From the IMG/VR virus record IMGVR_UViG_3300042887_000846: DNA of 56,828 nt; one strand, given 5' to 3'. Position numbers and translations under genes: made by a program. Source of the DNA: an uncultured virus (IMG/VR IMGVR_UViG_3300042887_000846) (taxonomy: Duplodnaviria; Heunggongvirae; Uroviricota; Caudoviricetes). A model generated the notes under the pieces. That model was not told the DNA's origin and searched no databases. It saw only the letters and a list, made by a program, of their open reading frames with translations. Shown piece by piece: positions 38,682 to 56,339 of this stretch. How positions within the stretch are numbered: the stretch's first letter is position 1; each line of letters starts with the position of its first letter.

Positions 38682-39238
38682 CTAAGATTAGCAAGAGCCC
38701 ACAAAGAAATACTTTTCAAAAAGAAAAGTACATTGAGCGTTGCCAAAAAGAAGGTATAGAACCTTCACAGGATTATTTAGACATGTGGCTAGAAGATGAT
38801 AAGCGCCGCATGTCTAAATTCAATGATCCACAAAGCAGAGTCAATAATATGGAATATGATTTATTGACTACTGATTGGATATTAGAAAAAGTACGTAATG
38901 ATGAAGCATACGCACAAAATCTATATGCCAGCATGTGTAATACTGATTTTGTCAGAAACGATGTATGGCCATTATTGAAGGGTGAAAAGTGGAGTTGTAG
39001 TTGGCGCTATGCAGGGGGTATCATTGCTGATATGTGCCAAGAGGGAGACTACATAGATTGGTACTGTTCAGGTATACGAGGTGATATGTCTGAACCTTTT
39101 GATCCTACACCAGAGCAAATCGAACGTATGAAAATAACTGAGCGGTTTGTAGGTGAAGGTCATGTGACTGATGAGATTCGTAGTGACTTATTAAAGTTAG
39201 GATGGGTAGTTATCGATGACGACAGCCAGCCCATATAA
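38678..39238 (+). CDS. Conserved-looking phage hypothetical protein
   Basis: WSCSWRYAGG and GDYIDWYCSG motifs. ATGA overlap. Confidence 0.7.
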   Translation: MTKISKSPQRNTFQKEKYIERCQKEGIEPSQDYLDMWLEDDKRRMSKFNDPQSRVNNMEYDLLTTDWILEKVRNDEAYAQNLYASMCNTDFVRNDVWPLLKGEKWSCSWRYAGGIIADMCQEGDYIDWYCSGIRGDMSEPFDPTPEQIERMKITERFVGEGHVTDEIRSDLLKLGWVVIDDDSQPI

Positions 39239-39246
39239 ATACAGTT

Positions 39247-39393
39247 ATGATCAATTTAAATAACCTTCACGGCGGCATTAAACTCATCAAAGAGATAATG
39301 GACAAAAATAATAATAAGAGACAACCTTGGTCTAGAGACAAGCAGAAAGAAAAGGTGTCTTCACTTAAAAATTATAAACCTAAATCAAAATGA
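39247..39393 (+). CDS. Small basic protein (48 aa), not in the ORF track
   Basis: MINLNNLHGG...KPKSK. Perfect TATAAATA lies 5 nt before the ATG. Confidence 0.5.
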   Translation: MINLNNLHGGIKLIKEIMDKNNNKRQPWSRDKQKEKVSSLKNYKPKSK

Positions 39394-40007: not shown

Positions 40008-40580
40008 ATGAAAACAGTAGGAGATAAATTAAAGCCCTTCGCCGTAGTTGGCGTTAAGCCAGGCAAGTTGACCCCAGATGATGCTTTTGAAACTATCACA
40101 GAAAAGAGTTTTGAAGGCAAGTGGAAAGTAATTGTTTACTATCCAAAAGATTTTACTTTTGTCTGCCCAACTGAGATCGTTGCTTATGACAAGTTGAACA
40201 AAGATTTCGCTGATCGTGATGCCGTATTACTAATCGGTAGCACAGACAACGAGTTCTGTAAACTAGCATGGCGCGCAAATCATGAAGATTTGAAGAAGAC
40301 TAACAGTTGGATGTTTGCCGATGTTAAGCGCGAGACATACAATGACGTTGATGGTTATAGTAATGAAGGTTTGATCGATCAACTAGGTGTATTCTACGCA
40401 CCGGCTGGTGCAGCATTACGCGCCACGTTCATCGTTGACCCACAGAATGTTATTCAGCACGTTACTGTAAACAACTTGAATGTTGGTCGTAGCCCAGAAG
40501 AAACATTGCGTGTACTAGACGCTTGCCAGACAGGTGAACTATGCCCGTGCAATCGTACTATCGGCGGTGAAACACTGTAA
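40008..40580 (+). CDS. ahpC: 2-Cys peroxiredoxin AhpC
   Basis: YPKDFTFVCPTE, ALRATFIVDP, VGRS..E.LR and LCPC. SD AGGAG. Confidence 0.95.
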   Translation: MKTVGDKLKPFAVVGVKPGKLTPDDAFETITEKSFEGKWKVIVYYPKDFTFVCPTEIVAYDKLNKDFADRDAVLLIGSTDNEFCKLAWRANHEDLKKTNSWMFADVKRETYNDVDGYSNEGLIDQLGVFYAPAGAALRATFIVDPQNVIQHVTVNNLNVGRSPEETLRVLDACQTGELCPCNRTIGGETL

Positions 40581-41224
40581 TGCTTGAAACTATCTGCGAA
40601 ACGCTTGTAGAGGCTTATCGTAGAAATTGGATCACAAGTCGTGATGGCAATGTTAGTATTCGTCATCACGACCGTGATCACTTCTATATAACACCTAGCG
40701 GTGTACGTAAGCAAACACTACAGCCTGATCAATTCAAAAAGATAGGCATAATGCATCAACCTATTGATAGATGGAATTGGACTGATTTGCCTTACACAGA
40801 TATAAGCAAAAATCTTAGACCAAGCGGCGAGTTACCATTACATTTTGGTTTACAAAAGATGATGGGGCAACATAGTAACGATGTTCGTGTCGTGATGCAC
40901 TTTCATCCTACATATTGTGTAGCAGCCATGCATGCGGGTATAGATTTAAGCACAGTCGTAAATGATTTTCCCGAACTAAGCCGTTATACAAAAGTAGCAA
41001 AGAATGTACCAGACGTACCTCCTATCAGTCAAGAATTGGCTGATCGTTGTCTTGAGAATCTAGAATTGACTAACAATGGCACTATATCTTATGATATAGT
41101 TGGCATCAAAGGTCACGGAGTAGTAGCAATTGATACAAGCCCGTGGCGTGCGTTTGAACATATAGAAAGACTAGAACACATTTGTAAGATCGTGCTTTCT
41201 AGCAGAAAGGTTCATAGTGCATGA
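40580..41224 (+). CDS. Class II aldolase/adducin family protein
   Basis: DGNVS, ITPSG, PSGELPLH, HFHP and GHGVVA. Confidence 0.88.
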   Translation: MLETICETLVEAYRRNWITSRDGNVSIRHHDRDHFYITPSGVRKQTLQPDQFKKIGIMHQPIDRWNWTDLPYTDISKNLRPSGELPLHFGLQKMMGQHSNDVRVVMHFHPTYCVAAMHAGIDLSTVVNDFPELSRYTKVAKNVPDVPPISQELADRCLENLELTNNGTISYDIVGIKGHGVVAIDTSPWRAFEHIERLEHICKIVLSSRKVHSA

Positions 41225-41426
41225 GTCTAATAAACGCAGTTTAGCAAAAGCAGTAAGTTGGCGAATCACCGGTACTGTAGATACATTCATAATAAGTTTT
41301 TTTGTGACGGGTGAAGTAGCATTAGCGGGTGCTATTGCAGTAACAGAAGTAGTGACGAAAATAGTTTTATATTGGTTGCATGAGAGAGTTTGGAATAAAG
41401 TGAAGTGGGGTAAGACAGATGCTTGA
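41217..41426 (+). CDS. DUF2061-like small membrane protein
   Basis: RSLAKAVSWR...YWLHERVW. Confidence 0.8.
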   Translation: MHESNKRSLAKAVSWRITGTVDTFIISFFVTGEVALAGAIAVTEVVTKIVLYWLHERVWNKVKWGKTDA

Positions 41427-41814
41427 GTGTTTGATATTAGGTGATAGCATAGCAGTAGGTACACATCAAGCAAGACCTGAGTGTGCTGTATATGCTAGAG
41501 GCGGAATCAACAGTAGAGATTTCGTTAACAGATATATAGGCAAAGACTTAGTTGCCGACACAGTAGTTATCAGTTTGGGTTCTAATGACCATAAAGGTAT
41601 TAAGACTAAAAACGAATTGATGGATTTGCGAAGTCAAGTAGTAGCAAAAAAAGTATATTGGATACTGCCTGCAATCAAACCAGAGATACAGGAAATAGTA
41701 GAAGAAGTAGCACACAAGTATGGTGATTGGATGATTAGAATTCCTCATCTTTCAAATGACGGTGTGCATCCTACTAGGCAAGGATATAAGAAAATAGGAG
41801 ATATAACAAAATGA
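41419..41814 (+). CDS. SGNH/GDSL hydrolase
   Basis: LGDSIA, LGSND and DGVHP blocks. Confidence 0.85.
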   Translation: MLECLILGDSIAVGTHQARPECAVYARGGINSRDFVNRYIGKDLVADTVVISLGSNDHKGIKTKNELMDLRSQVVAKKVYWILPAIKPEIQEIVEEVAHKYGDWMIRIPHLSNDGVHPTRQGYKKIGDITK

Positions 41815-42347
41815 ATGGATTAAGAAATTGGGTAGAAATTATCAAAGATAGCATCCCTGACCATAGTAAAGATATAAGATTAAATCTTGACGCAGTAATT
41901 AATCGTAGCCTGTTGAGCAAAGAAGATACACATGCAGTCGCATTAACAAGCGCACTTGCGGCAGGCAATGGAGAACTAGCGTTTGCGATCATGACTTCAG
42001 GAGAGTTGGATGAATTTCCTAAAGAAATGGAAGCCGCAAAAACAGCAGCGAGCCTAATGGGAATGAATAACGTATGGTATCCATATGTCGAGATGACACA
42101 GGATCCCGAACTCAAAGGCTTACCTGCAGGATTGCGTATGAATGCATACGCAACACACGGTGGTGTATCAAAGAAGCAGTTTGAGATGTATGCACTAGCC
42201 GCTAGCGCAATAGGTAAATGTCATTTTTGTGTTAAGAACCACTATGATGTTCTTAAGAAGGAAGGAATGACTACACCAGAACTACATCACGTAGGTAAAA
42301 TCGCTGCCGTGATTAATGCCATTAGCAAAGTAGCGCCAGATTTATAA
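41811..42347 (+). CDS. ahpD: Alkylhydroperoxidase AhpD
   Basis: KDIRLNL, LMGMNNVWY, E....A.S....CHFCV..H. Confidence 0.92.
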   Translation: MNGLRNWVEIIKDSIPDHSKDIRLNLDAVINRSLLSKEDTHAVALTSALAAGNGELAFAIMTSGELDEFPKEMEAAKTAASLMGMNNVWYPYVEMTQDPELKGLPAGLRMNAYATHGGVSKKQFEMYALAASAIGKCHFCVKNHYDVLKKEGMTTPELHHVGKIAAVINAISKVAPDL

Positions 42348-42905
42348 TCTGCCTATAAGCATCATTCTATTATACTTTAGATGCCCATAGTCAAATACTT
42401 TTTCACCTTCGAAAAGTATTTGACCCATGGGAAACTTTGATTTAAAGTCTTGCATATCAGGTATAGGATGAGTGATGTTCCATACAGGATCATCATTCAC
42501 TACATTACTAGACTGTATACAAACTAATTGATATGGATTGACTTTATGATACCAAGTTGCGTCCATATGCTCACAACTAGTATTGATGATCACATTATTG
42601 TATCCTAACTCTTTATGAGATATGGTATCAATATGTTTAGTGACGTTACGTAGTTTGTGCCCTTCACCTATCATCCAAGCATTATTAATTTTGTCTGCTA
42701 TCTGAGTAGCACGGTCATCTACATCTACTCCTTGTATCATATTATACGTCTCTGATTTCCTAGTCAACATCATAAACCCTAGTAAATTATACCAGGATCC
42801 TATGATCATGACTTGTGCAGGATCGGGTAAATGCTGTTCTAATTCTTCACAAAGCCAAAGTTTGCTTTGTAATTGTCCGTGACTGAATGCGTTGAAGTCT
42901 ATCAT
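42342..42905 (-). CDS. Class I SAM-dependent methyltransferase-like protein (start moved to MIDFNAF)
   Basis: IIGSWY glycine loop, acidic VDVD and INTSCEH. TAAATA lies 5 nt before the ATG. Confidence 0.75.
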   Translation of the reverse strand: MIDFNAFSHGQLQSKLWLCEELEQHLPDPAQVMIIGSWYNLLGFMMLTRKSETYNMIQGVDVDDRATQIADKINNAWMIGEGHKLRNVTKHIDTISHKELGYNNVIINTSCEHMDATWYHKVNPYQLVCIQSSNVVNDDPVWNITHPIPDMQDFKSKFPMGQILFEGEKVFDYGHLKYNRMMLIGRL

Positions 42906-42991
42906 GCTTATATTTACTAACGTTGGTTGATGTATAAATAAAACGATGGACTTGTAGAGTCCTTTTTCTATTATATAATCAGGAGAAAAAT

Positions 42992-43174
42992 ATGAAGAAT
43001 GTAATCGTTTTGGGTTTAGTAGCACTTGCTCTTGTAGCATGCGGCAAGAAGGAAGAAGTTAAGGTCGAGCCAGTAGTTGAGGCTGCACCAGCAGTCGTTG
43101 CCCCTGCCCCAGCCGCTGAAGTGGGCAAGCCTGCTGATGAGAAGGTTGAAGCCACTGCACCAGCAGCCAAGTAA
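42992..43174 (+). CDS. Small lipoprotein
   Basis: Signal peptide with lipobox LVAC and an Ala/Pro-rich tail. SD AGGAG, with TATAAATA at 42933-42940. Confidence 0.85.
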   Translation: MKNVIVLGLVALALVACGKKEEVKVEPVVEAAPAVVAPAPAAEVGKPADEKVEATAPAAK

Positions 43175-43231
43175 TTTAAAAAAATCGCCGTTAAATGCGA
43201 TAAAAAATTACAAGGAATAAATAAATTCACT

Positions 43232-43351
43232 ATGAATACTTTACTACTCATATCTAAACATTGGTGTTCCTTACAGATTAGTAAGATGAATGCCTATGCC
43301 TTTGGATACGAGACACCACGCAACCAAAGAGATCATGAGGTGCCCGGGTGA
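43232..43351 (+). CDS. Putative attenuator leader peptide (39 aa, contains all 20 amino acids)
   Basis: MNTLLLISKHWCSLQISKMNAYAFGYETPRNQRDHEVPG*. Its last codons form the 5' arm of a predicted antiterminator. Confidence 0.7.
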   Translation: MNTLLLISKHWCSLQISKMNAYAFGYETPRNQRDHEVPG

Positions 43352-43389
43352 TGTAAGTTGTTGATTTATAACGAATTTATGTCCCGGGC
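43342..43389 (+). promoter_or_regulatory. Predicted antiterminator hairpin
   Basis: GCCCGGG (43342-48) pairs with CCCGGGC (43383-89), extended by ATGTAAGTT/AATTTATGT and GTTG/TAAC with G-U pairs. Confidence 0.7.
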
Positions 43390-43416
43390 CTAAAAAACCC
43401 GGGATTTTTGTTTTTG
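43381..43416 (+). terminator. Intrinsic terminator, mutually exclusive with the antiterminator
   Basis: GTCCCGGG-cctaaaaaa-CCCGGGAT followed by TTTTGTTTTTG. Confidence 0.85.
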
Positions 43417-43420
43417 AGGC

Positions 43421-43449
43421 TTGACATTTGGTTTTAGAGGGTGCATAAT
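43421..43449 (+). promoter_or_regulatory. sigma70-type promoter
   Basis: TTGACA-17 nt-CATAAT. Confidence 0.75.
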
Positions 43450-43505
43450 ACATTCTGTGTTGATAATTTAAGGAGACACAGATTAGTAAAAGTTTTAAAC
43501 AAGGC

Positions 43506-43534
43506 TTGACACGCACATGAATTTGTGCGATGAT
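43506..43534 (+). promoter_or_regulatory. Weaker sigma70-type promoter
   Basis: TTGACA-17 nt-GATGAT. Confidence 0.5.
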
Positions 43535-43553
43535 AGCAGACTAGTGTGAAATT

Positions 43554-43776
43554 GAGGGAACGAGGTCCTCACAGCGCACTTTAAACATGCTGTAAACGGG
43601 CGGACAGTATACATGAAAGGGTTGGCGATAACTTCCCGAGTAAGACTACTGACTAGGGCATGACCCTAGTATAGCAAAGGAAACTTTGCTATTCTATAAG
43701 CACATTCGTTAATGCCATCAGGCTCTGCAACTCGCTTGGGTACTCCGTGTTAATTTTGAATGTGCTTATAGAATAG
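43554..43776 (+). ncRNA. Candidate structured RNA upstream of the first tRNA
   Basis: Several hairpins, including GCGA and GAAA tetraloops, and a perfect 19-bp inverted repeat at 43689-43707/43758-43776. Confidence 0.45.
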
Positions 43777-43789
43777 TAAATAGTTCGTT

Positions 43790-43865
43790 GCCCATCTAGC
43801 TCAGTTGGTAGAGCACCTGATTAGTAATCAGGATGTCGGCGGTTCGATCCCGTCGATGGGCACCA
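43790..43865 (+). tRNA. tRNA-Thr(AGT)
   Basis: Acceptor GCCCATC/GATGGGC, anticodon arm CCTGA-TTAGTAA-TCAGG, GGTTCGA T-loop, CCA. Confidence 0.92.
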
Positions 43866-43878
43866 AAGTAAAGATTAT

Positions 43879-43954
43879 TGGCCTATAGCTCAGTCGGTAG
43901 AGCATTTGACTGTTAATCAAAGTGTCCCTGGTTCGAGCCCAGGTAGGCCAGCCA
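43879..43954 (+). tRNA. tRNA-Asn(GTT)
   Basis: Cloverleaf with anticodon loop CTGTTAA, ending GCCA. Confidence 0.93.
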
Positions 43955-44035
43955 ATATTCTGTAGGTAAGATATGTTGAATAGGACATATCACGGTAGTT
44001 CGCGGTGTGTGGGGCGACTATCTCTTTTTAATTTT

Positions 44036-44111
44036 GCTCGGTTCGTCTAGAGGCCTAGGACGCCGCCCTTTCACGGCAGTAACACGGGTTCGAATCCCGT
44101 ACCGAGTACCA
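44036..44111 (+). tRNA. tRNA-Glu(TTC)
   Basis: Cloverleaf with loop CTTTCAC and CCA. Confidence 0.9.
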
Positions 44112-44115
44112 GTTT

Positions 44116-44192
44116 GGGTCTATCGTATAATGGCATATTATATCTGGCTCTTAACCAGAAAGATGCAGGTTCAAGTCCTGCTAGGCCCACCA
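44116..44192 (+). tRNA. tRNA-Lys(CTT)
   Basis: TCTGG-CTCTTAA-CCAGA, atypical D-arm, CCA. Confidence 0.85.
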
Positions 44193-44201
44193 AACCTCGG
44201 T

Positions 44202-44275
44202 TGAGGGATCATCCAATGGTAGGATAGCGGACTTTGACTCCGTTCATCTTGGTTCGAATCCAAGTCCCTCAGCCA
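44202..44275 (+). tRNA. tRNA-Gln(TTG), copy 1
   Basis: U1-A72 pair, loop CTTTGAC, ending GCCA. Confidence 0.92.
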
Positions 44276-44475
44276 GATTATATCATCCTGTCCTTTGATG
44301 TAGTAGGGAATGATTATACGGTAAAACATCAGTACAGAGTGCGAGGTTGTCTGTTGGTAGCATGAATATACTATGAGGTGAACAGAATAGTCTATGTTGC
44401 GCGGGGGCATAGATGAGATCAAACTCTATTGTTGTTTACGGTGGAGTTAGCCCGCGCCTTAACTAAATATTCTCT

Positions 44476-45075
44476 ATGAACAATTACTTTTTTAAAATAG
44501 CAAAATTTGATATCGATGAAACTCTGTTATACAACGAGTGGTTCCACGTAGCCAACAAATACGATGCGTTTAACAGGACTAAAAAGTTTATAGAAGATAT
44601 CAATGGGGTAAAAGGTTACAAGACCTATCATAGGTTGCGAATCAACTATCCCGATAATATGAGTAGTGATATGGATCCAGTTATGATACAAGGGTATAAC
44701 ACTGAAGTAGAGGCTACTGGATATAGCATCGATAATATCATTGATGATTTTAAAGGTTCGTATACTGAAAAGATTGCTAGACAAGTGCATGATTTCTTGC
44801 TTGAAAAATATCCGGCATATATCGTCACTAATATCAAGTATCATTCGATATCACCCAAATCATCAATGACGTTGCATATTGATGATAGCACTAGACCTAG
44901 ATTTTTTCTTTCTGCTAGCGTACCCGAAGGTTGTTTCATGCAAATAAACAATGAGAAGATTCCTATGCATGAGACCGGCGCATTGTACAGAATGATATGC
45001 AAAGTGCTACATAATCCATTAAATGAAAGTGATGGTTATCGTGTTTCTATGGTTTTTGATATAGCACATAAGTAA
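44476..45075 (+). CDS. 2OG-Fe(II) oxygenase / Asp-Asn hydroxylase-like protein
   Basis: HxD (LHIDD), distal His (LHNPLN) and RVSMVFD. Confidence 0.7.
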   Translation: MNNYFFKIAKFDIDETLLYNEWFHVANKYDAFNRTKKFIEDINGVKGYKTYHRLRINYPDNMSSDMDPVMIQGYNTEVEATGYSIDNIIDDFKGSYTEKIARQVHDFLLEKYPAYIVTNIKYHSISPKSSMTLHIDDSTRPRFFLSASVPEGCFMQINNEKIPMHETGALYRMICKVLHNPLNESDGYRVSMVFDIAHK

Positions 45076-45090
45076 GTGCTAAATAAGTTT

Positions 45091-45250
45091 TGTGAGAGTC
45101 CGAAAGCAAAGAGTTTAACCAACTACCTGGCTATCAAGGATGTATCCGACCTTTTGTTATATTCGATCCCGGTTATTAGGGTGTGCTGTGGTGGCACTGG
45201 AAACAAAAGGGGGCATATCTAGCCCTTAAACGGACGATAGCACCCTCACC
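45091..45250 (+). ncRNA. Candidate rod-like structured RNA
   Basis: Nested helices GTGAG/CTCAC, GTCC/GGAC, GTTTAA/TTAAAC, GGCTA/TAGCC and CCTTTTGTT/AACAAAAGG. Starts just after CTAAATA. Confidence 0.55.
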
Positions 45251-45260
45251 CCGAATTAAC

Positions 45261-45336
45261 GGGCCTGTAGCTCAGTTGGGAGAGCGCCAGCTTTGCAAGC
45301 TGGATGTCGCAAGTTCGATCCTTGTCAGGTCCACCA
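45261..45336 (+). tRNA. tRNA-Ala(TGC)
   Basis: G3:U70 pair, loop TTTGCAA, CCA. Confidence 0.94.
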
Positions 45337-45355
45337 GATTTTAAGTGAGTTTAAA

Positions 45356-45790
45356 TTGTTGCATCTTATAAATGATTTCACAGATAAGTTTTTCAGTTTC
45401 TTGTTAGAAGATCCTGTGAGACCAAATATTCCTCAAGTTGACCGTATAGGCAACAACAAGGATATCTTTGTCATGCGTGATGAAGATGATAAGGCACAAG
45501 CGATAACCTGTGTGAGTTATCAAAAATCTGTTCCTACTAGTGAGGCTGATCTTTTTGAAATGTGTGAAGAACCCGAGATCGCGGTTTTTTATACGATTTG
45601 GAGTTATAAAGCCGGAGCCGGTAGACAATTGATATTTGATGCCGCACAGTATATCAAAGAAAACAGACCTGAGATCAAACGTTTTGTCACATTAAGTCCT
45701 AAGACTGAAATGGCTAAAAGGTTTCATCTTAAGAACGGTGCTTTAGTATTCAGAGAAAATACAGACACCGTTAACTATGAATATCTATAA
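45356..45790 (+). CDS. GNAT-fold protein resembling the malonyl-CoA decarboxylase C-terminal domain (start moved downstream of the tRNA; TTG start uncertain)
   Basis: AVFYTIWS..GAGRQLI...FVTLSP. Confidence 0.65.
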   Translation: MLHLINDFTDKFFSFLLEDPVRPNIPQVDRIGNNKDIFVMRDEDDKAQAITCVSYQKSVPTSEADLFEMCEEPEIAVFYTIWSYKAGAGRQLIFDAAQYIKENRPEIKRFVTLSPKTEMAKRFHLKNGALVFRENTDTVNYEYL

Positions 45791-45794
45791 ATGT

Positions 45795-45869
45795 CGCAGA
45801 GTGGAGAAGGGGTATCTCGTCAGGCTCATAACCTGAAGGTCGGTGGTTCGATTCCATCCTCTGCAACCA
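45795..45869 (+). tRNA. tRNA-Met(CAT), initiator type
   Basis: C1:A72 mismatch, loop CTCATAA, CCA. Confidence 0.88.
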
Positions 45870-45895
45870 ATAACTGTTGTTAAAATACAACAGGC

Positions 45896-45924
45896 TTGAC
45901 AACGGGACATTTCGGCACTATAAT
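45896..45924 (+). promoter_or_regulatory. Consensus sigma70 promoter
   Basis: TTGACA-17 nt-TATAAT. Confidence 0.9.
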
Positions 45925-45979
45925 ACATGTATTGATGCTGAAAAAGCGTCCCGTTCTTTAAAATACACGATTTTTTTAT

Positions 45980-46055
45980 ATACCGGTAGCTCAACTGGCA
46001 GAGTAGCGGTCTCCAAAACCGCAGGTTGGGGGTTCGATTCCCTCCCGGTATGCCA
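45980..46055 (+). tRNA. tRNA-Trp(CCA)
   Basis: GCGGT-CTCCAAA-ACCGC, ending GCCA. Confidence 0.92.
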
Positions 46056-46061
46056 AATTAT

Positions 46062-46139
46062 GTGTCGGTGGCAGAGCGGCCCATTGCAACGGATTGCAAA
46101 TCCGTAAAACCGTCAGTTCAAATCTGACCCGACACTCCA
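46062..46139 (+). tRNA. tRNA-Cys(GCA)
   Basis: Loop TTGCAAA, U73 discriminator, CCA. Confidence 0.9.
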
Positions 46140-46455
46140 AGTTTCATCGGAAAATGGCTGTGACCACCATAACCAGCCCAGTGCTTTTGTACGGCGCAAT
46201 TCTAGACAAGCCAGAGAGAGCAAACGATAGCAGGGAGATTGCTATCCATAACGATGAGCCCTACGTTCCGGGTGTCTCCGGATAGTGTGACCCACACGAT
46301 GAGAAGTAGTGTGACAACTACGGGTGGTAGTCTTTAAACCAAAAGGCCGCTGGCAGTGCGAGAACGGTCCCTGTCGGGAAGCGGGTGGAAGGAGTGTGTG
46401 ATGGGTATGATAGCGTCATATCTTGATACTCTATAATTACCGCCGGGGGACGCAG

Positions 46456-46665
46456 AGCATTTTAAAATATATTAAGGGTTACCTGATCCGTTAGGTACTT
46501 TAAGAGAGGAGCACAGGGGCCGCCCTACGCAATCTTAGAGTACAGGAAGCGTATGAGTACATTGTACCGAACGTGACGGGCAGTTAGGCAGTAATGACGA
46601 AACTGAAAATATGAGAGACGGTCTCATATAGCAAGTCTAGTTCCCTTAGTGTATTTTAAAATGCT
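46456..46665 (+). ncRNA. Candidate structured RNA closed by a 23-bp helix
   Basis: 46456-46478 pairs with 46643-46665 using two G-U pairs, with internal hairpins. Confidence 0.55.
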
Positions 46666-46678
46666 AAATTAAATATGC

Positions 46679-46763
46679 GGAGATGAAGCATCAATGGTGA
46701 TGCAGTGGACTGTAAATCCGCCGCCTTCGGGCACGACTGGTTCGATCCCAGTAATCTCCACCA
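46679..46763 (+). tRNA. tRNA-Tyr(GTA)
   Basis: Loop CTGTAAA, long variable arm with TTCG, CCA. Confidence 0.88.
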
Positions 46764-46770
46764 AATATTA

Positions 46771-46847
46771 GCCTCAATAGCTCAGTTGGTTAGAGCATCG
46801 TCTTGATAAGGCGGGGGTCCATAGTTCGAATCTATGTTGAGGCACCA
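46771..46847 (+). tRNA. tRNA-Ile(GAT)
   Basis: Loop TTGATAA, CCA. Confidence 0.92.
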
Positions 46848-46850
46848 ATT

Positions 46851-46926
46851 GGCAGTGTAGCATAGCGGTTAATGCGCTTCCTTCATACGGAATAGATCGT
46901 GTGTTCGAATCACACCACTGCTACCA
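46851..46926 (+). tRNA. tRNA-Met(CAT), elongator (Ile2 not excluded)
   Basis: Loop TTCATAC, CCA. Confidence 0.85.
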
Positions 46927-46928
46927 AT

Positions 46929-47005
46929 GGTGGCTGTCGTCAAGCGGTTAAGACCATGGATTGTGATTCCATTATACGTGGGTTCGATTCCCACCAGTCA
47001 CCCCA
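46929..47005 (+). tRNA. tRNA-His(GTG)
   Basis: G-1:C73 pair, loop TTGTGAT, CCA. Confidence 0.92.
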
Positions 47006-47009
47006 AATT

Positions 47010-47085
47010 GCCATAGTAGCTCAGTTGGTAGAGCAACGGATTGAAAATCCGTGTGTCGTTGGTTCGATTCCAACCTTTGGCACCA
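47010..47085 (+). tRNA. tRNA-Phe(GAA)
   Basis: Loop TTGAAAA, CCA. Confidence 0.93.
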
Positions 47086-47090
47086 AAAGG

Positions 47091-47119
47091 TTGACAAATA
47101 GATTCTTTGATAGTATAAT
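47091..47119 (+). promoter_or_regulatory. Consensus sigma70 promoter
   Basis: TTGACA-17 nt-TATAAT. Confidence 0.9.
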
Positions 47120-47129
47120 TAAAGCATAA

Positions 47130-47221
47130 GGAGAGGTGCCCGAGAGGCCGAAGGGAGCGGTTTGCTAAACCGTCGAACGTAGAAATATGTTCCGTGGGTT
47201 CGAATCCCACTCTCTCCACCA
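47130..47221 (+). tRNA. tRNA-Ser(GCT)
   Basis: Loop TTGCTAA, long variable arm, CCA. Confidence 0.92.
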
Positions 47222-47439
47222 GACCCCGGTTTACACTTTTACGTTATATAAAGTGGGTGATTGTCGCAACCATACAGACACGGTGAGATCATTATCGACC
47301 GCAAGGCCTGATTTTACGGGCGACTTGAGACACATGATCGGGCAGAAGTGAAACTGACCTAGATGCAAATATCAACGGACAGGGTAACAACTCAGTTTGG
47401 GGCAGAACAGGGAACTGTAGCCAAACACTTTAGAATTTT

Positions 47440-47516
47440 GGCCCGTTAGATCAGTTGGTTAGATCGCATGCCTGTCACGCATGAGGCCAGGGGTTCAAGT
47501 CCCCTACGGGTCGCCA
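47440..47516 (+). tRNA. tRNA-Asp(GTC)
   Basis: Loop CTGTCAC, ending GCCA. Confidence 0.93.
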
Positions 47517-47523
47517 TATTTTT

Positions 47524-47600
47524 GCGTCTTTAGTTCAGTGGATCAGAATGCAACGCTACGAACGTTGAGGTCGGAGGTTCGAGTCCTTCAAGGCGCGCCA
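47524..47600 (+). tRNA. tRNA-Arg(ACG)
   Basis: Loop CTACGAA, ending GCCA. Confidence 0.93.
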
Positions 47601-49074
47601 GCCAATCATCTATTTGATTTGCTATCTTATGAATCGTGTTCCTGCTGTATTTTCTCAATGCAGGTAAATCATTTATAGGAGTTCTATTGATAGGGTGTGT
47701 GCTATCATCATTATCTTCATCAGGCATGTACATTATAGTCAGGTTAGGATTATTGATATGTTTCTGCCAAGCATGATATAGATAATCATAACGCACATCC
47801 TTCTTGAATACATCTGAGTATTTTGGTAACAGTATCAACGCCTTTCGCTGTGTATCTGATAAACGGTTCACGAAATGTGTGATGACGTTATCAAAATATT
47901 CTTTAGTGTGATTCTTTTCAAGAGACCAATACATGCTATAATCGAAAATAAATTCGATGTACGAAGCGAACACAATGATCTTGGGTAATTTCTCAAAATT
48001 ATACTGTGAGTGATATAATTTATCAGTGCGAAACAAATCTTCTAGTGGTATATTGTAATAGATTTGATCCATATATCTGCTATATGCGGCGTATGCAGGT
48101 CCTAAACAATGCATCAAGAACGCGATAGATGGTTCTTTAACTGAAAGATTTTCTTGACCTCTGATGAAGTTTTCTAAAGAGGAATATTCATGTACGTTGA
48201 TATAATCGATATCAGCATGATCTATACAATTGCTACCCAATAACATTTTGTATTTGGATTTCAACAATTGCATACATCGTTGTTCAATATTCATGTTCAT
48301 GACTCTGCAACTAAAAACAAAATTAGTTATAGTGGCTGCGTTTAATAATGAATCACCTTTAGTTTGTATTGAGATATAACCGATCAAACCATAATAACCA
48401 TACTTGTCCCATGCGAATACAGCATAACTTTTTATGTCGTTTCTGAGGATATAATCTGATACTGTGTTTTTAGCAAAGCGACTATTGGTATAGTTAAGTT
48501 GATTGGATTTATTGACTAGTTCTTCTACTCTTTCTTGATATAACAAACAATCATGATTCTCTGCTATCGCTATATTGATATCAGAATCTTTTAAAAATTC
48601 AATATTAGAATCATAAGATTTTCTGATATCTTTCTTTGTTTCTAATATTCTATATTGTTTTGTTTTAGTATTATTTTGGGGTATGGCAAACTCATCTATG
48701 AATTTGTATGGGTCATTGTACGTAACTATGCCTGGACAATAATATGTTGCTTCATTGAGGTTTATCATATTATCATCGATGAATACAACATCATCCGAAC
48801 GTAACTGACAATCAGATATAATTTGATTTATCCTGTTACCTTTCGGTAGTAGATTGATGCTTGGGAAAACAAAGAGTTCCCAAATATCTAGACTCTGTAG
48901 TTTTTTCTTGATACGATCATGATCGTTTTTAGAACAGATAGAATGTATGATACCATTCTTTTCTGTGTTTTTTATAAATTCGATGATGTCTTGATTCGGC
49001 GAAGTATCGCCGCCTTCAGTGATACTACCACTCCATAGTACACCATCAAGATCCCAGATAACAAGTTTAACCAT
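47530..49074 (-). CDS. FkbH-like HAD-IIIC phosphatase/acyltransferase
   Basis: VIWDLDGVLW, CSKND, VFIDD, ELVNKSNQLN, DKYGYYGLIG and FSCRV. Confidence 0.85.
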   Translation of the reverse strand: MVKLVIWDLDGVLWSGSITEGGDTSPNQDIIEFIKNTEKNGIIHSICSKNDHDRIKKKLQSLDIWELFVFPSINLLPKGNRINQIISDCQLRSDDVVFIDDNMINLNEATYYCPGIVTYNDPYKFIDEFAIPQNNTKTKQYRILETKKDIRKSYDSNIEFLKDSDINIAIAENHDCLLYQERVEELVNKSNQLNYTNSRFAKNTVSDYILRNDIKSYAVFAWDKYGYYGLIGYISIQTKGDSLLNAATITNFVFSCRVMNMNIEQRCMQLLKSKYKMLLGSNCIDHADIDYINVHEYSSLENFIRGQENLSVKEPSIAFLMHCLGPAYAAYSRYMDQIYYNIPLEDLFRTDKLYHSQYNFEKLPKIIVFASYIEFIFDYSMYWSLEKNHTKEYFDNVITHFVNRLSDTQRKALILLPKYSDVFKKDVRYDYLYHAWQKHINNPNLTIMYMPDEDNDDSTHPINRTPINDLPALRKYSRNTIHKIANQIDDWLARLEGLEPPTSTFVALHSDPLN

Positions 49075-49090
49075 ACAGATATTTAGTTAA

Positions 49091-49167
49091 GCCCAGGTGA
49101 TGGAACAGGTATACGTGTCTGACTCAAAATCAGAATTTTGTGGGTTCGAATCCCACCTTGGGCACCA
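49091..49167 (+). tRNA. tRNA-Leu(CAA), short variable loop
   Basis: TCTGA-CTCAAAA-TCAGA, A73, CCA. Confidence 0.88.
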
Positions 49168-49171
49168 ATAT

Positions 49172-49246
49172 TGGGGATTCGCCAAGCGGTAAGGCATCGG
49201 ATTTTGATTCCGACATTCCCAGGTTCGATCCCTGGATCCCCAGCCA
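49172..49246 (+). tRNA. tRNA-Gln(TTG), copy 2
   Basis: U1-A72 pair, loop TTTTGAT, ending GCCA. Confidence 0.92.
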
Positions 49247-49252
49247 AATAGT

Positions 49253-49281
49253 TTGACAAGTTCCGATGAAACAGTTATAAT
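49253..49281 (+). promoter_or_regulatory. Consensus sigma70 promoter
   Basis: TTGACA-17 nt-TATAAT. Confidence 0.9.
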
Positions 49282-49314
49282 TTTAATAGAATGATTGTAC
49301 ATTTGACAGATTAC

Positions 49315-49390
49315 GGGACGTTAGCTCAGTTGGTAGAGCAGTAGACTTTTAATCTATTGGTCACAGGTTCAAATCCTGTACGTCCTACCA
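49315..49390 (+). tRNA. tRNA-Lys(TTT)
   Basis: GTAGA-CTTTTAA-TCTAT, CCA. Confidence 0.94.
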
Positions 49391-49410
49391 TTTTCAGGAT
49401 AAATAAAAAT

Positions 49411-50175
49411 ATGAGTAAGTTGTTGATCACAAGCGGATGTAGTTTTAGTGAATGTCTATCGTCAAGTATCGATACTTGGCCTCGACATCTCACACGTAAA
49501 TTAGAATCGCATGGTTACGATAAGCATATCAGTTGTGCTATGGGCAGTCAAGGTAATGGATTGATTAGTCGTGGACCAATGTATGAAGTGACCAAAGCAC
49601 TGAAGACTCATAAGCCAGAAGACATTCTTGTCGGCATTATGTGGAGCCACAGCAATCGATTTGATTATCGTTGTGAAGACCCTACCGTATTGAGTTGGGG
49701 TCATGAGAACAAGCATCATTGGATGGTGAATCCACGATCATTTGTAGATGGAGCACCCAATAATTGGGTGATCGGTAATCTACATTGGGATAGTATAGAA
49801 TTCTCAACTCATTTGAAGTATTATCATAGTCATATCGGTTCATCAATATTGAGCCTTGAGCATATATTGCGCACTCAATATTTTTTGAAGTTGAAGAAAG
49901 TTCCATATTTCTTTACAGATTTTATAGACTATAATATAGTTGAGAAAGCATTCTTACATGAACCAGAATTGACTTATCTCATGGATGAATTAGACAAAGA
50001 TCAGTATTTACCCGTAACGAGCGAACACGGTTGGTTGATAGAAAATAGCATGACTAAGGAAGAATATCTTAAAGAACATAATGGTTGGCAGTGGATTCAT
50101 CCTAAGACCCATCATCATAAAGAATTCGTAGATAGAGTTATCTATCCTTGGTTGCAGGATAAAAAGTATATATGA
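49411..50175 (+). CDS. SGNH-like hydrolase/acyltransferase (start moved to MSKLL)
   Basis: SGCSFS, GQGN-like block and C-terminal HP...H. TAAATA lies 5 nt before the ATG. Confidence 0.7.
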   Translation: MSKLLITSGCSFSECLSSSIDTWPRHLTRKLESHGYDKHISCAMGSQGNGLISRGPMYEVTKALKTHKPEDILVGIMWSHSNRFDYRCEDPTVLSWGHENKHHWMVNPRSFVDGAPNNWVIGNLHWDSIEFSTHLKYYHSHIGSSILSLEHILRTQYFLKLKKVPYFFTDFIDYNIVEKAFLHEPELTYLMDELDKDQYLPVTSEHGWLIENSMTKEEYLKEHNGWQWIHPKTHHHKEFVDRVIYPWLQDKKYI

Positions 50176-50180
50176 TTTTT

Positions 50181-50256
50181 CTGCCCGTAGTTCAGGGGAT
50201 AGAACAACAGCCTTCTAAGCTGTGGGTCGCAGGTTCGAATCCTGCCGGGCAGGCCA
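50181..50256 (+). tRNA. tRNA-Arg(TCT)
   Basis: Loop CTTCTAA, ending GCCA. Confidence 0.92.
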
Positions 50257-50270
50257 TAAAGTGAGGACTA

Positions 50271-50894
50271 ATGAGAGTTAAAGTATACAATGACAGCATA
50301 ATTCATTTGATGTTTCCTAATCAAAAGGAACTCACTATGACTTTATCTAGACCTCAAGAATTCTATGAAAGCAATAATTCAAAGTTGCGTAATAGAATTT
50401 TCACGTATGAACAATTCATAGATCATCATACACAAAAAGACGGGTGTTTTGACTACTTCAGTTTTTGGGGTGGTTTTAATATACCTGGGCATATCTTAGA
50501 AGACTTCTTTGACGTTTTTGAATTGACCCAACGTGAAGCAGCGGTTAGGAAAATTACTAAGAGATACAAGCGAAAGCCTTACTATCTGATCGGTACGTTA
50601 GCAAAAGATGATGAGACGATGGTTCACGAACTACTACATGCTCATTATTATTTGGATCCTGTGTATAAACAACAGGTAGATGTGCTAGTGAGGTCTATGA
50701 GTAAGACTCTAAGAGTAGAACTGACCACTGCGTTAAAAACAATGGGTTATGCTAACCATGTGATAACGGACGAAATAAATGCGTACATGGCTAGTAGTAA
50801 ATATAAGTACTTAAAAGAGGAATTAGAATTAGATGTTACGAGGGCTGATATGAAGCCATTCGTAGAGTTGATGAAGACAATAATGCGGCGGTAG
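50271..50894 (+). CDS. Hypothetical protein with an HExxH zincin-like motif
   Basis: VHELLHAHY...DEINAY. SD GAGG. The stop codon lies inside tRNA-Gly. Confidence 0.7.
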   Translation: MRVKVYNDSIIHLMFPNQKELTMTLSRPQEFYESNNSKLRNRIFTYEQFIDHHTQKDGCFDYFSFWGGFNIPGHILEDFFDVFELTQREAAVRKITKRYKRKPYYLIGTLAKDDETMVHELLHAHYYLDPVYKQQVDVLVRSMSKTLRVELTTALKTMGYANHVITDEINAYMASSKYKYLKEELELDVTRADMKPFVELMKTIMRR

Positions 50895-50958
50895 TTTAAT
50901 GGTAGAATGAGAGCCTTCCAAGCTCACGACAAGGGTTCGATTCCCTTTCGCCGCTCCA
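50885..50958 (+). tRNA. tRNA-Gly(TCC)
   Basis: GCG start, loop CTTCCAA, U73, CCA. Confidence 0.9.
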
Positions 50959-50974
50959 AACAAAGGTGAATTTT

Positions 50975-51214
50975 ATGATGGATAGCAAACAAATGGCACT
51001 ACAATATCTCATGGATTCGTGTGATGATATGGCTAGTGCTTGCGAGAAGAATTTAAAGTCGCTCGACAAGAAAAAGACCTTAAGAGATTTAGAACGAAAT
51101 TTTGGTAACTTGCTAGCAAGTATTAAAGAAGTAGTCGAAGCATATAAGTTAGATGAGAACAAAGTTTTTTCCGAAGTAGAGAACTCTATACAAAAACGCA
51201 AAGAATCAATCTGA
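50975..51214 (+). CDS. Small helical hypothetical protein
   Basis: AAGGTG SD before ATG ATG. Confidence 0.55.
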   Translation: MMDSKQMALQYLMDSCDDMASACEKNLKSLDKKKTLRDLERNFGNLLASIKEVVEAYKLDENKVFSEVENSIQKRKESI

Positions 51215-51220
51215 CTTGGT

Positions 51221-52354
51221 ATGAAGATTCTGCGTAAGATAGTCAACATGGATAGTATGCTTTATGATGAGCATAGCCATGACATTTTTGAGAAACATGA
51301 TCATTTCTTTCAACTAGATGATCGCTGGGAATATGTCGATAATATAGAAGACGCAGACATAGTTCCTATATTACCAGCCGGAAAACCTAAACTTGATAAA
51401 TGCTCACTTAGATTGAGAGACGATCAAGTACTATGTATGTTGATGTACTATTTGATAGATGATCACCATGATATATCATTTTTTGAAAATGTGCTAGAAT
51501 ACGCGGGGCATATAGCCAAAAATGTATTGATAGTGCATAAAAATAGTTTATTTAAAAATCATGTTCACGATAACATCGTGCATTATGATTCTATGTTTAG
51601 TATCACTAAGATGTGTTTTACCGAATATGAAAACTATGATTTTACAGACCGTATTTGGAATCTATATTCACATAATGATACATATCGTTTACCGGATATA
51701 AAAAAGAATCTAACTAAAAAATTTATGTGTCCTACGTATGTCTATCAACCATATACACATGCTAGGATGATCTATAGAGCAAAAGTTAGAGAAATCATAG
51801 AACCATATAAAGAATATGGTTATGTGAGTACAGATAAAGTCAAATTGATGCCTAATAGTCCGGTGACTGACCTCATGCTGAATAATATGATGAATAGTAC
51901 TACTATACAATGGTATCCGGTCAGCGATGAATTATATAACTCATCCTGTATCTCAGTTGTATGCGAGACTATAACGGGTTTATGCAATGAGGATAAAAAA
52001 TATAATAAAGTTCAATGTGTCACAGAGAAAACACTAGAACCATTGGCAAAAGGTAATTTCATATTACCATTTGGATATCCCGGATTGATACAAGATGTAT
52101 TAGCATATGGGTTCAAATTACCAGAATGGATAGATTATTCATATGACGATTTACATGACATAGATAAACGATTTAACAAGTTCAAAACGATATTAGATAA
52201 TTTATTAGGTAACATCTCTGTAGACAGATTACAAAAGTTTTGTGAAAGAGATATAGATATATTAGAACACAATAAACGGGTATTTTACTCTAGACCTTAT
52301 GATAATTTATATGATATAATCTTGAGTAAATACAAAGAATTATTGCCCAGGTGA
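51221..52354 (+). CDS. Glycosyltransferase-like protein (ET...TEKT type)
   Basis: ISVVCET...VTEKTLEPL...LPFGYPG...GF...IDYSYD C-terminal motif set. The stop codon lies inside tRNA-Leu. Confidence 0.65.
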   Translation: MKILRKIVNMDSMLYDEHSHDIFEKHDHFFQLDDRWEYVDNIEDADIVPILPAGKPKLDKCSLRLRDDQVLCMLMYYLIDDHHDISFFENVLEYAGHIAKNVLIVHKNSLFKNHVHDNIVHYDSMFSITKMCFTEYENYDFTDRIWNLYSHNDTYRLPDIKKNLTKKFMCPTYVYQPYTHARMIYRAKVREIIEPYKEYGYVSTDKVKLMPNSPVTDLMLNNMMNSTTIQWYPVSDELYNSSCISVVCETITGLCNEDKKYNKVQCVTEKTLEPLAKGNFILPFGYPGLIQDVLAYGFKLPEWIDYSYDDLHDIDKRFNKFKTILDNLLGNISVDRLQKFCERDIDILEHNKRVFYSRPYDNLYDIILSKYKELLPR

Positions 52355-52421
52355 TGGAATTGGTATACGTGTTGGTCTTAGAAGCCAAATTTTGTGGGTT
52401 CGAGTCCCACCCTGGGCACCA
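52345..52421 (+). tRNA. tRNA-Leu(TAG), short variable loop
   Basis: TTGGT-CTTAGAA-GCCAA. The body is nearly identical to tRNA-Leu(CAA). Confidence 0.88.
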
Positions 52422-52433
52422 TTATAAGAGAGC

Positions 52434-53831
52434 ATGATGATAATCACTAGAGATATAATCAATCGTGATATAAAATATTTCGACCGCACACAATTAAATT
52501 TGCATAAGGATTTTGATTTTGCCGGCTTGTCTAGCATGGTCGATGCATATAAAAATCTATTCATGTCTAAGGGCGCTAGTAAAGGCAAAAGCGTAGTCAT
52601 AGGCAATCCTGCTAATACGTCACAGATAGCATTAGTATTAGCATGTGCAGAATTAGGACTCACGATTATGATCGTAGGCAATCCGTTATTGCCGGGCACT
52701 AAACCAGAAGACTATATTCGCATGAGAGGTAATATAGATTCTAAACTAAAAAAATTGTTACCGATAGATTACTTTATATTAGATAATCAGCAAAGCACAA
52801 ATAAGTTTGAGGTGTTTAGTGATGTTTGCAGATACACTATTCTTATAGAAAATGAGAAATTAGATTACACCCCTAACAACACGATATATGCAGACGATAC
52901 TACTTTATTGATAAAATGTACTAGTAGCGGTACTACTGGCGAACCTAAAGTACTATCACATACTCATGCATTCATGTATGAATTAGTACATAGAAATAGC
53001 AAGCAATTTTATGGTAATATGGGAATGCTCAGTAATCTTGCGCACGGTAGCAGTATCGCTGTGTATTTTTTACCGGGACTAGTATCTAAAGATGTAAAAA
53101 GTTATTACAACTTACCTAATATTGATCTAGCGACTATATCAAAGATACTACACAATCAAAATGCATCATTAGATCATTTGCTTATTCCTTATACAGTGTT
53201 CATCGATGATTTTTTTACAACAGATCATAAATTATCAGGTTGTGTGCTACATACTTTAGGTATGATACGCAAGTCTTGGGTGAAAGAATTGTATAGCGGC
53301 AGGATCAAAGACATAGTTAGTATATTTGGAACTAATGAAACTTCAGGTCCCTTCTTATTGAATAAAGCGTCTGATCCTGAATTCGCTGAAGATACATATT
53401 TTGAGATAGATGATTTTTATAAATTAAATCTATCAGGTAATTATGGATTAGAAGTCATAATGCCTATATATGAAACCAGTGTGAGGACACATGATACTTT
53501 CTACAAGCAAGGGAATAAATTTGTGCATGTGGGTAGAAGTAACTTATATCGGATAAATGATTTAGAAATCGATGTCAACAAGTATCAAATAGAAGTTGAT
53601 AGATTGATAAAAGGTGAAATAATAGTAGACACAAAGAAAGATAACATCTATCTTGTGATTTGGGAAGATATAGTAGATTTATCTAAAATCGACTACATCA
53701 ATGCCCGTATGAAGAGTGATAGTAATGGATTGCATTTCATATCCAAATATGCAAAGTTAAATTATTCAGATTATCTCAATGGCGTCAAGATCGATAGAGA
53801 GACGTTGAGGGAATACTTCCGAAATCTTTAA
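52434..53831 (+). CDS. AMP-binding (adenylate-forming) enzyme
   Basis: TSSGTTGEPK, FGTNET, THD, VGRS and GVKIDR. Confidence 0.85.
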   Translation: MMIITRDIINRDIKYFDRTQLNLHKDFDFAGLSSMVDAYKNLFMSKGASKGKSVVIGNPANTSQIALVLACAELGLTIMIVGNPLLPGTKPEDYIRMRGNIDSKLKKLLPIDYFILDNQQSTNKFEVFSDVCRYTILIENEKLDYTPNNTIYADDTTLLIKCTSSGTTGEPKVLSHTHAFMYELVHRNSKQFYGNMGMLSNLAHGSSIAVYFLPGLVSKDVKSYYNLPNIDLATISKILHNQNASLDHLLIPYTVFIDDFFTTDHKLSGCVLHTLGMIRKSWVKELYSGRIKDIVSIFGTNETSGPFLLNKASDPEFAEDTYFEIDDFYKLNLSGNYGLEVIMPIYETSVRTHDTFYKQGNKFVHVGRSNLYRINDLEIDVNKYQIEVDRLIKGEIIVDTKKDNIYLVIWEDIVDLSKIDYINARMKSDSNGLHFISKYAKLNYSDYLNGVKIDRETLREYFRNL

Positions 53832-53893
53832 CCAATTCACTATACATTCTTGTCCGGGCTAGTTATAATATACACAGTTAATCGGAGAATGTT

Positions 53894-54058
53894 ATGAAAA
53901 CGGTTACATTTGAAAACATCTTCAATAAAGAGAGGTTCGAAGTTTTTGGTAAAAAAGATACCAAATTCATCGATGGTATTGAATACTGGAAAGTATTTAA
54001 GCAAGGTACCAAGCGTGAAGTATTAGTACGCAAGGATTACTTGAAAAAGGTTAAATAA
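53894..54058 (+). CDS. Small hypothetical protein (54 aa), not in the ORF track
   Basis: SD GGAG. MKTVTFENIFNKERF...LKKVK. Confidence 0.7.
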   Translation: MKTVTFENIFNKERFEVFGKKDTKFIDGIEYWKVFKQGTKREVLVRKDYLKKVK

Positions 54059-54075
54059 GAAAGACAGAGGACGAT

Positions 54076-55184: not shown

Positions 55185-55198
55185 TATATAGTATAGAA

Positions 55199-55274
55199 GC
55201 CCACTTAGCACAGCTGGTAGTGCAACTGATTTGTAATCAGTAGGTCGGCGGTTCGAATCCGTCAGTGGGCACCA
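55199..55274 (+). tRNA. tRNA-Thr(TGT)
   Basis: Loop TTTGTAA, CCA. Confidence 0.94.
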
Positions 55275-55279
55275 TTTTT

Positions 55280-55909: not shown

Positions 55910-56000
55910 GTTTTGTACTATACAAAAACTATACTTTTTGGCCTGGCTGTATAAATAGACTTGACACGGGGACGTGTCCATGCAGTACAGGAGTAGTACA

Positions 56001-56246: not shown

Positions 56247-56274
56247 TTTAACAACCATCCTCCAGAGGGTTGTA

Positions 56275-56300
56275 GGGCGGTAGCGATATCGCCCTTTTTT
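56275..56300 (+). terminator. Intrinsic terminator
   Basis: GGGCGGTA-GCGA-TATCGCCC followed by TTTTTT. Confidence 0.85.
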
Positions 56301-56339
56301 ATTGCATTAGTTTTAAATTAATATATAATGAATATAGTT

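Follow-up and report, generated by a model that had tools for sequence, protein, structure and literature searches.

In the attenuators of amino-acid operons (trpL, hisL, thrL and ilvL type; compare PMC3082878 and PMC4046918), a short open reading frame (ORF) precedes an intrinsic terminator, and a segment at the end of the ORF can pair with the 5' arm of that terminator. We have analysed a locus with the same features at the head of an array of tRNA genes in a stretch of 56,828 nucleotides (nt), hereafter the window, from an uncultured virus (IMG/VR record IMGVR_UViG_3300042887_000846). An initial annotation of the window had recognized the geometry of an attenuator here, and that geometry (short ORF, terminator and alternative pairing) is real. 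The locus differs from the amino-acid operons in several respects: no enrichment or runs of regulatory codons were found in its leaders, which spell 18-20 kinds of amino acid in 33-39 codons; the ORF would be leaderless or near-leaderless and stands behind a phage late promoter; the genes to be controlled encode tRNAs rather than biosynthetic enzymes; promoters follow the terminator; and 4 of 10 loci have an imperfect clamp in the alternative hairpin. A second point of comparison is offered by attenuators that register a general slowing of the ribosome, among them the pyrBI leader with its coupling and the antibiotic-responsive bmrB-bmrCD and vmlR leaders. In these, as would be the case here, any delay of the ribosome on the leader alters terminator formation, but the signal is UTP-dependent pausing or an antibiotic, and the genes under control are those for enzymes or resistance; we know of none gating tRNA genes or residing in a phage. 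Word searches of the open-access literature, which are no proof of absence, yielded among the papers listed no published case of a phage tRNA array controlled by leader-peptide attenuation. Our tentative reading is that the locus is a translation-sensing attenuator gating late transcripts into the tRNA array, with early promoters and an IHF-type site as an independent early route.

The window derives from a T4-like phage, its capsid protein matching Pfam Gp23 (333 bits) and its prohead protease matching Peptidase_S77; the phage is an uncultured freshwater one, and the locus stretch is present in public lake-water metagenomes. Read over 42700-43900, the order is a lipoprotein-like gene, a late-promoter box (AATAAATA), the leader ORF, the CCCGGG copies, a T-run to 43416, two early promoters (P1 and P2), a leader of ~250 nt and a tRNA-Thr gene. 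Exact-pattern scans of viral contigs and a protein-anchored metagenome scan yielded 11 distinct versions of the locus, which fall into a window group of seven (the window, L004, L002, L010, L003, L023 and L034) and a distant group of four (L035, L030 (= L344), L024 (= L346 = L348) and L349). Counts of frames and boxes given below are out of these 11 variants, and counts of folds and pairings are out of 10 loci, seven of them in the window group. Three more exact-pattern scans brought up the same five viral contigs again, and searches of phage records with the DNA and with a neighbouring protein gave no match. In L002, L003, L004 and L010 the neighbouring 187-residue protein is only 36-61% identical, and the stretch at ~43210-43790 is 85-89% identical, column by column. 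By blastn, 5 of 80 metagenome loci carry the element, and L022 and L033 end before its position.

T4 late promoters (gp55) carry the box TATAAATA at -13 to -6, the first T of which is poorly conserved in relatives (PMC1524935). A T4-type box lies on the plus strand at 43216-43223; it reads AATAAATA in the window and CATAAATA, GCTAAATA or TATAAATA in the relatives, and was present in 11/11 variants. The likeness to T4 extends to NATAAATA boxes before structural genes of this Gp23-type phage, 23-27 nt upstream of those at 3933, 6948 and 11467. Unlike anything that the accessible part of PMC1524935 describes for T4, boxes in this phage are fused to start codons. The pattern TAAATA-N5-ATG occurs eight times in the window against 1.64 expected (0/100 shuffles reached eight), at 3836-3849 (-), 6918-6931, 24092-24105, 39236-39249, 42903-42916 (-), 42935-42948, 49072-49085 (-) and 49400-49413, and six of the eight are the starts of ORFs of 48-514 amino acids (3838 -, 24103 +, 39247 +, 42905 -, 49074 - and 49411 +). 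The phage thus appears to fuse late promoters routinely to start codons, producing leaderless late messages, and the suggestion that the leader ORF itself may be leaderless fits this habit. Distant-group leaders show the exact N5 spacing (box to ATG, 5 nt); in the window group the distance is 8 nt, and we infer a late RNA start at ~43229, which leaves 3 nt ahead of the AUG. By itself an ATG at +1 is no proof of a gene, since two of the eight sites open only 9 codons (6929) and 3 codons (42946), ahead of the Shine-Dalgarno-led genes at 6948 and 42992, and since an ATG at the same late-box spacing stands directly before a tRNA in L026. A sigma70 promoter with a -10 element that includes the leader ATG (TTACAA-17-TATGAA) was considered; it did not appear in the promoter scan and was displaced by the late-box reading.

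The leader ORF occupies 43232-43351 on the plus strand, stop codon included, and reads as first reported: 39 sense codons, 33 of them distinct, and all 20 kinds of amino acid. Its frame was open in 11/11 variants; window-group frames are 38-39 codons long and those of the distant group 33-34. Variable columns were spread evenly over the three codon positions (13/15/12 of 38 each in the window group, 5/10/9 of 32 each in the distant group), and purely synonymous columns made up 4 of the 23 varying codon columns in the window group (the other 19 being amino-acid-changing) and 2 of 17 in the distant group. With this even spread and no excess at third positions, the amino-acid sequence of the leader is not under purifying selection; Pfam and PHROGs moreover gave no match for the peptide, and on these grounds a functional micro-protein was rejected as the principal explanation. 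A representative-protein search with a 10-peptide alignment returned six matches, of which proteins of 39 and 33 residues are the two leader groups themselves; the other four (220-1309 residues, with 6-19 matched stretches) were taken as spurious.

The open frame itself is maintained. The chance of no stop codon arising within the groups was 0.05-0.08 and 0.23-0.33, only 6-12% of composition-matched shuffles of the ORF had an open frame, the other two frames of the leader region contain 1-4 stops, and both of the indels that are clear within a group keep the frame (-3 nt in L002/L010, +3 nt in L349). Multiplying the no-stop and open-shuffle figures and 1/3 per indel gives a rough joint chance of ~1e-3 for the kept frame, a post hoc estimate that assumes independence. 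The stop codon lies on or beside CCGG/CCCGGG in both groups, although their local sequences differ: the window group has CCC GGG TGA and the distant group TAA/TGA CCGG. The open frame in 11/11 variants, the absence of a third-position excess, the late-box-to-ATG layout and the conserved terminator together point to what is likely a translated, sequence-unconstrained leader ending at the foot of the terminator.

The two exclusive folds reported for three CCCGGG copies, at 43343, 43383 and 43398, were borne out; the hexamer occurs seven times in the window against 1.82 expected, a count reached by 0/100 shuffles. Copy 1 (43343-43348, +) makes up the last two sense codons and can pair with copy 2 in a long GU-rich hairpin (43342-43389, +), the candidate antiterminator. 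Copies 2 and 3 form an intrinsic terminator (43381-43416, +; stem 43381-43405) with an 8-base-pair (bp) GC-rich hairpin, a 9-nt loop and a U-tract, which a simple terminator scan omits because it allows loops of at most 8 nt. Across the loci the terminator was paired in 80/80 cells, with a UA-to-CG compensatory change in three loci, and the long hairpin in 89.8% of 197 cells, with one compensatory AU-to-GC pair. Copy 1 reads CCCAGG or CTCAGG in 4/7 window-group loci, and in the distant group a CCGG stands just after the stop. When 43330-43420 was folded free, the minimum-energy structure was the copy 1:copy 2 hairpin (-24.9 kcal/mol); when the window RNA was blocked through the stop and a further 12 nt, the copy 2:copy 3 hairpin formed (-15.3 kcal/mol), and the same block on the leader produced the terminator in 10/10 loci. 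With each state forced in turn, the antiterminator was the more stable in the window (-1.0 kcal/mol for the full transcript, -3.0 locally) and in L003 (-4.2 and -4.0), and in L002 locally only.

Distant-group leaders show a further complementarity, between their first codons and the arm that immediately follows the stop (-11.2 to -16.8 kcal/mol; shuffle P values of 0.049, 0.001 and 0.003), and this first-codon segment gives the 1:2 / 2:3 / 3:4 layout of the amino-acid operons. So modelled, the distant group resembles the classical attenuator of four segments, and its RNA would terminate when left untranslated. Pairing of the first codons with the motif arm was no better than in shuffles in the window group (P 0.26-0.53), and the naked RNA of the window is predicted to favour read-through slightly. 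The earlier proposal that absence of translation leads to read-through fails for the distant group, where pairing of the first codons with the arm would favour termination. A further hairpin, between an invariant CACC block and the copy-1 region, showed no compensatory change and four breaks. In Rfam no family reached its gathering score for the element (best match 16.2 bits against a 49.5-bit cut-off), and a T-box, a riboswitch and a known small RNA were set aside for want of Rfam support.

According to the attenuator reading, the late box would start an RNA with its 5' end at, or very close to, the AUG of the 33-39-codon frame, and the CCGG/CCCGGG at the stop codon could pair with the 5' arm of the intrinsic terminator 32 nt downstream. 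A ribosome reaching the stop would cover that motif, the terminator would form and the late transcript would end as an RNA of ~185 nt; a lagging ribosome would leave the motif free to hold the terminator arm, and late transcription would enter the tRNA genes. The act of translating the leader would matter and the peptide itself would not, and the downstream early promoters, read by the host RNA polymerase and probably served by the IHF-type site between stop codon and terminator, would drive the array independently. Three more distant relatives (L026, L027 and L032) bear on the late route: no lipoprotein gene, small ORF or terminator was found in them, and their first tRNA is immediately preceded by a tandem of a TTGACA-type promoter and a TATAAATA or similar box, a layout which implies that the array is transcribed both early and late with no leader involved. 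Late transcription of tRNAs thus exists in the lineage, and in the window it must pass the ORF-terminator module.

Several observations weigh against this reading. The same three more distant relatives drive their tRNAs straight from the late box with no leader at all, and in the window the conserved early promoters bypass the switch. The 43330-43420 fold is energetically unexceptional (z = -1.62; 13/200 shuffles fold as well), the terminator state was the more stable in 7/10 full transcripts, covariation in the antiterminator amounts to the one pair given above, and its clamp pair (149:188) is broken in 4/10 loci, those in which copy 1 is CCCAGG or CTCAGG. The two groups are predicted to use different partners for their upstream segments, so the folds do not establish one uniform mechanism. 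The invariance of the hairpin arm needs no RNA explanation, because the motif that it contains is widespread at the DNA level, as described below. The window-group leader would have a 3-nt 5' end (N8) rather than start at +1. Nor is leader composition uniform: Val is missing in 10/11 variants and Asp in 2/11, and distinct codons range from 23 to 33, the counts for L023 (28) and L024 (23) being ordinary against shuffles (P 0.34-0.84). Lastly, a 434-nt RNA-library contig of a relative bridges 43162-43521, crossing the terminator and both promoters, and may be DNA. RNA-library contigs over the element come from two runs of different studies, a 232-nt contig covering 43213-43428; contigs of this kind show presence only and cannot show ends, strand or level, DNA carry-over is possible, and the parts they leave uncovered are uninformative.

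A plainer account, the main rival and in our view possible if doubtful, treats the locus as a junction, in which a small leaderless late gene or translated spacer ends at a constitutive terminator and read-through is unregulated. The long hairpin would then be an IHF-type site between palindromic flanks, within a PeSL-like cassette shielding the early tRNA operon against late transcription from upstream. IHF sites set between palindromes at operon ends are familiar from the RIB/RIP elements. The 19-nt IHF-type motif (43352-43370, strand-neutral) lies between the stop codon and the terminator, makes up the 5' arm and the loop of the long hairpin and is invariant in the leader family except at one R and one Y position. 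Like described IHF sites it fits the consensus WATCAANNNNTTR (PMC9452768), at 43354-43366 on the minus strand with an A/T tract alongside; it differs from them in lying inside a transcribed leader and is a putative site, known from its sequence match. The loose WATCAANNNNTTR consensus alone is not significant in the window (nine matches against 5.1 expected). The 19-nt motif occurs in at least 120 IMG/VR viral contigs and at least 121 bacterial genomes from many Gram-negative phyla, in many unrelated contexts. In the 111 distinct contexts among the matches listed, it often sits in a flanking stem (of at least 5 bp in 42), is accompanied by iteron-like repeats in 24 and has a TTGAC within 90 nt in 21; some copies lie beside tRNA or att-like ends, and others before T-runs or TTGAC promoters or between inverted repeats. 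In the phage the site probably serves the early promoters ~60-95 bp downstream.

Composite terminator/early-promoter cassettes are described for T4-like phages (PMC4122927), and the PeSLs of that kind have a stem-loop and a T-run immediately ahead of a sigma70 early promoter close to consensus, in a part of the genome that is variable (PMC4122927; see also PMC2839356). The layout here is alike, the U-tract ending at 43416 and the -35 hexamer of P1 starting at 43421, and it is strongly conserved among phages that share only 36-61% identity in their neighbouring proteins. PeSLs differ in being dispersed repeats that are followed by a Shine-Dalgarno sequence and a gene start (PMC4122927); the stem-loop is single in the 56.8-kb window, the long-hairpin motif having one copy there even with up to three mismatches, so that there is no dispersed cassette here, and it has a conserved ORF before it and tRNAs after it. 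The sequence GGCTTGACA is found exactly at 43418, 43503, 45893 and 12466. A plain junction also sits well with the other small leaderless ORFs of the phage, such as that of 48 amino acids at 39247-39393, and with the degenerate clamp and the favoured terminator state. Against it, the frame is kept open despite the lack of amino-acid-level constraint, the stop codon remains beside CCGG in both groups, and the complementarity of the distant-group first codons to the motif arm points to RNA-level pairing beyond a DNA site.

The initial annotation went further than a translation-sensing attenuator and proposed a sensor of tRNA loss in general: the leader would be selected for a near-complete set of amino acids and codons, and loss of almost any tRNA would stall the ribosome, open the terminator and yield replacement tRNAs. 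We consider this unlikely. The composition of the window ORF is rare for a single ORF, but it was chosen post hoc out of a very large scan. The six frames of the window yield 24,208 stop-free stretches of 39 codons; all 20 kinds occur in 32 of them, at least 33 distinct codons in 63 and the two together in three, namely the leader ORF and two overlapping stretches antisense to a tRNA (49177-49296, -). In first-order Markov sequence 0.9-1.0% of such stretches had all 20 kinds, 0.9-1.3% at least 33 codons and 0.04-0.07% both. The stretch at 49177-49296 (-), the only other one of its kind, lies antisense to tRNA-Gln and its spacer and indicates that such diversity can arise in non-coding structured sequence.

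Amino-acid diversity does recur in the relatives. All 11 variants contain 18-20 kinds in 33-39 codons (20 in the window, 19 in eight and 18 in two), which is 2-3.5 kinds above their shuffle means of 15.2-16.8, and as the peptides of the two groups are only 19-22% identical this diversity recurs in largely different sequence. Against mononucleotide and Markov shuffles of its own composition the window ORF had P = 0.006-0.011 for 20 kinds, with which structure-preserving shuffles agree (0.0097); the chance of at least the observed number of kinds was 0.007-0.012 for L035 and L030 and 0.05-0.08 for the other window-group members and L024, L349 being left out. In favour of such a sensor, too, phage tRNAs are reported to counter tRNA-cleaving defences (PMC10264068, PMC11464382 and PMC11555353). 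Set against this, possession of all 20 amino acids is peculiar to the window, and the residues missing elsewhere, Val and in two variants Asp, have tRNAs encoded in the array; the 33 codons and the switching between synonymous codons were likewise not conserved. The window group was picked for the property, and the distant group, the only replicate that was not, is one lineage (P ~0.01-0.08), which makes it suggestive rather than decisive. The predicted upstream pairings would restrict effective stall sites to some codons, and 16 of the kinds in the window group fall in three nucleotide-invariant blocks that RNA pairing could explain equally well. The observation behind the original proposal is confirmed and its interpretation partly supported; the features of a pan-tRNA sensor are not fully kept in relatives.

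RNAalifold predicted an irregular hairpin inside the ORF (43247-43312, +) from the seven window-group sequences and in that group only; its pairs 43271:43284, 43273:43282 and 43274:43281 stay paired through two-sided changes in one or two sequences each. Least likely of all is a non-coding late small RNA, in which the ~185 nt from late box to terminator act as RNA and the open frame is incidental: these three compensatory pairs, the long nucleotide-invariant blocks that include third positions, the ATGs at +1 of late boxes without a long frame (42946, 6929 and that of L026) and the RNA-library coverage would suit it, but the frame kept in 11/11 variants with in-frame indels, a layout equal to that of real leaderless genes, ORF-part structures that differ between groups while the frame is the shared feature, and the absence of an Rfam match all speak against it.

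The sigma70-like promoters noted just downstream of the terminator were found at 43421-43449 (P1, +; TTGACA-17-CATAAT, 11/12 matches) and 43506-43534 (P2, +; TTGACA-17-GATGAT with TG, 10/12 matches); window-group members keep both and the distant group has a single promoter of this type, and the caveat that early promoters can bypass the terminator is upheld. From P2 to the first tRNA runs a conserved structured leader of ~250 nt (43540-43789, +) with no Rfam match, in which a hairpin at 43693-43776 keeps its stem in relatives, where unrelated sequence takes the place of its interior. The leader ORF (43273-43284) and the P1 transcript (43478-43489) have a 12-nt direct repeat in common, and beside it a 7-nt repeat, GAGACAC, stands at 43306-43312 and 43473-43479; in the P1 leader the two repeats are joined and lie within a small hairpin with an AAGGAG loop. 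The array itself (43790-56503, +) begins with tRNA-Thr at 43790 and holds 26 tRNA genes interspersed with ORFs. ARAGORN found 25, and the Rfam tRNA model added, at 36 bits, a tRNA-Tyr missed by ARAGORN (46679-46760; GTA anticodon, long variable arm), in agreement with the original count of 26 tRNAs covering all 20 amino acids. In the metagenome loci L024, L030, L034 and L035 the tRNAs present form arrays behind the element, in L026, L027, L029 and L032 tRNAs lie right beside the homologue of the 187-residue protein, three other loci have tRNAs elsewhere, and 69/80 have no tRNA within the flank.

Upstream of the late box lies the small lipoprotein-like gene (42992-43174). Farther upstream a cluster of host-like metabolic genes (40008-42347) encodes an AhpC/TSA peroxiredoxin, a class II aldolase, a DUF2061 protein and a CMD/AhpD-like protein, together with a GDSL-like hydrolase match below the cut-off. 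Elsewhere in the window, 17401-21710 (and 23160-27624) contains paralogous ORFs of ~220-250 amino acids that match a virion structural protein family (phrog_8510, phrog_24074).

Even under the plain reading, the analysis brings to light leaderless starts fused to late promoters and an IHF-type site of 19 nt that is very widespread, and the locus is a small cassette amenable to a reporter test. If ribosome position sets read-through, this would be a phage that regulates its own tRNA supply by measuring translation, and leader-peptide attenuation would extend from amino-acid biosynthesis to tRNA genes and to the leaderless late messages of T4-like phages. A pan-tRNA sensor, if true, would amount to a feedback loop on decoding capacity itself, delivering a full replacement set of tRNAs upon starvation or attack by host anticodon nucleases. 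Control of the array by translation would bear on why large phages carry near-complete tRNA sets, whether for codon supply or for escape from tRNA-cleaving defences.

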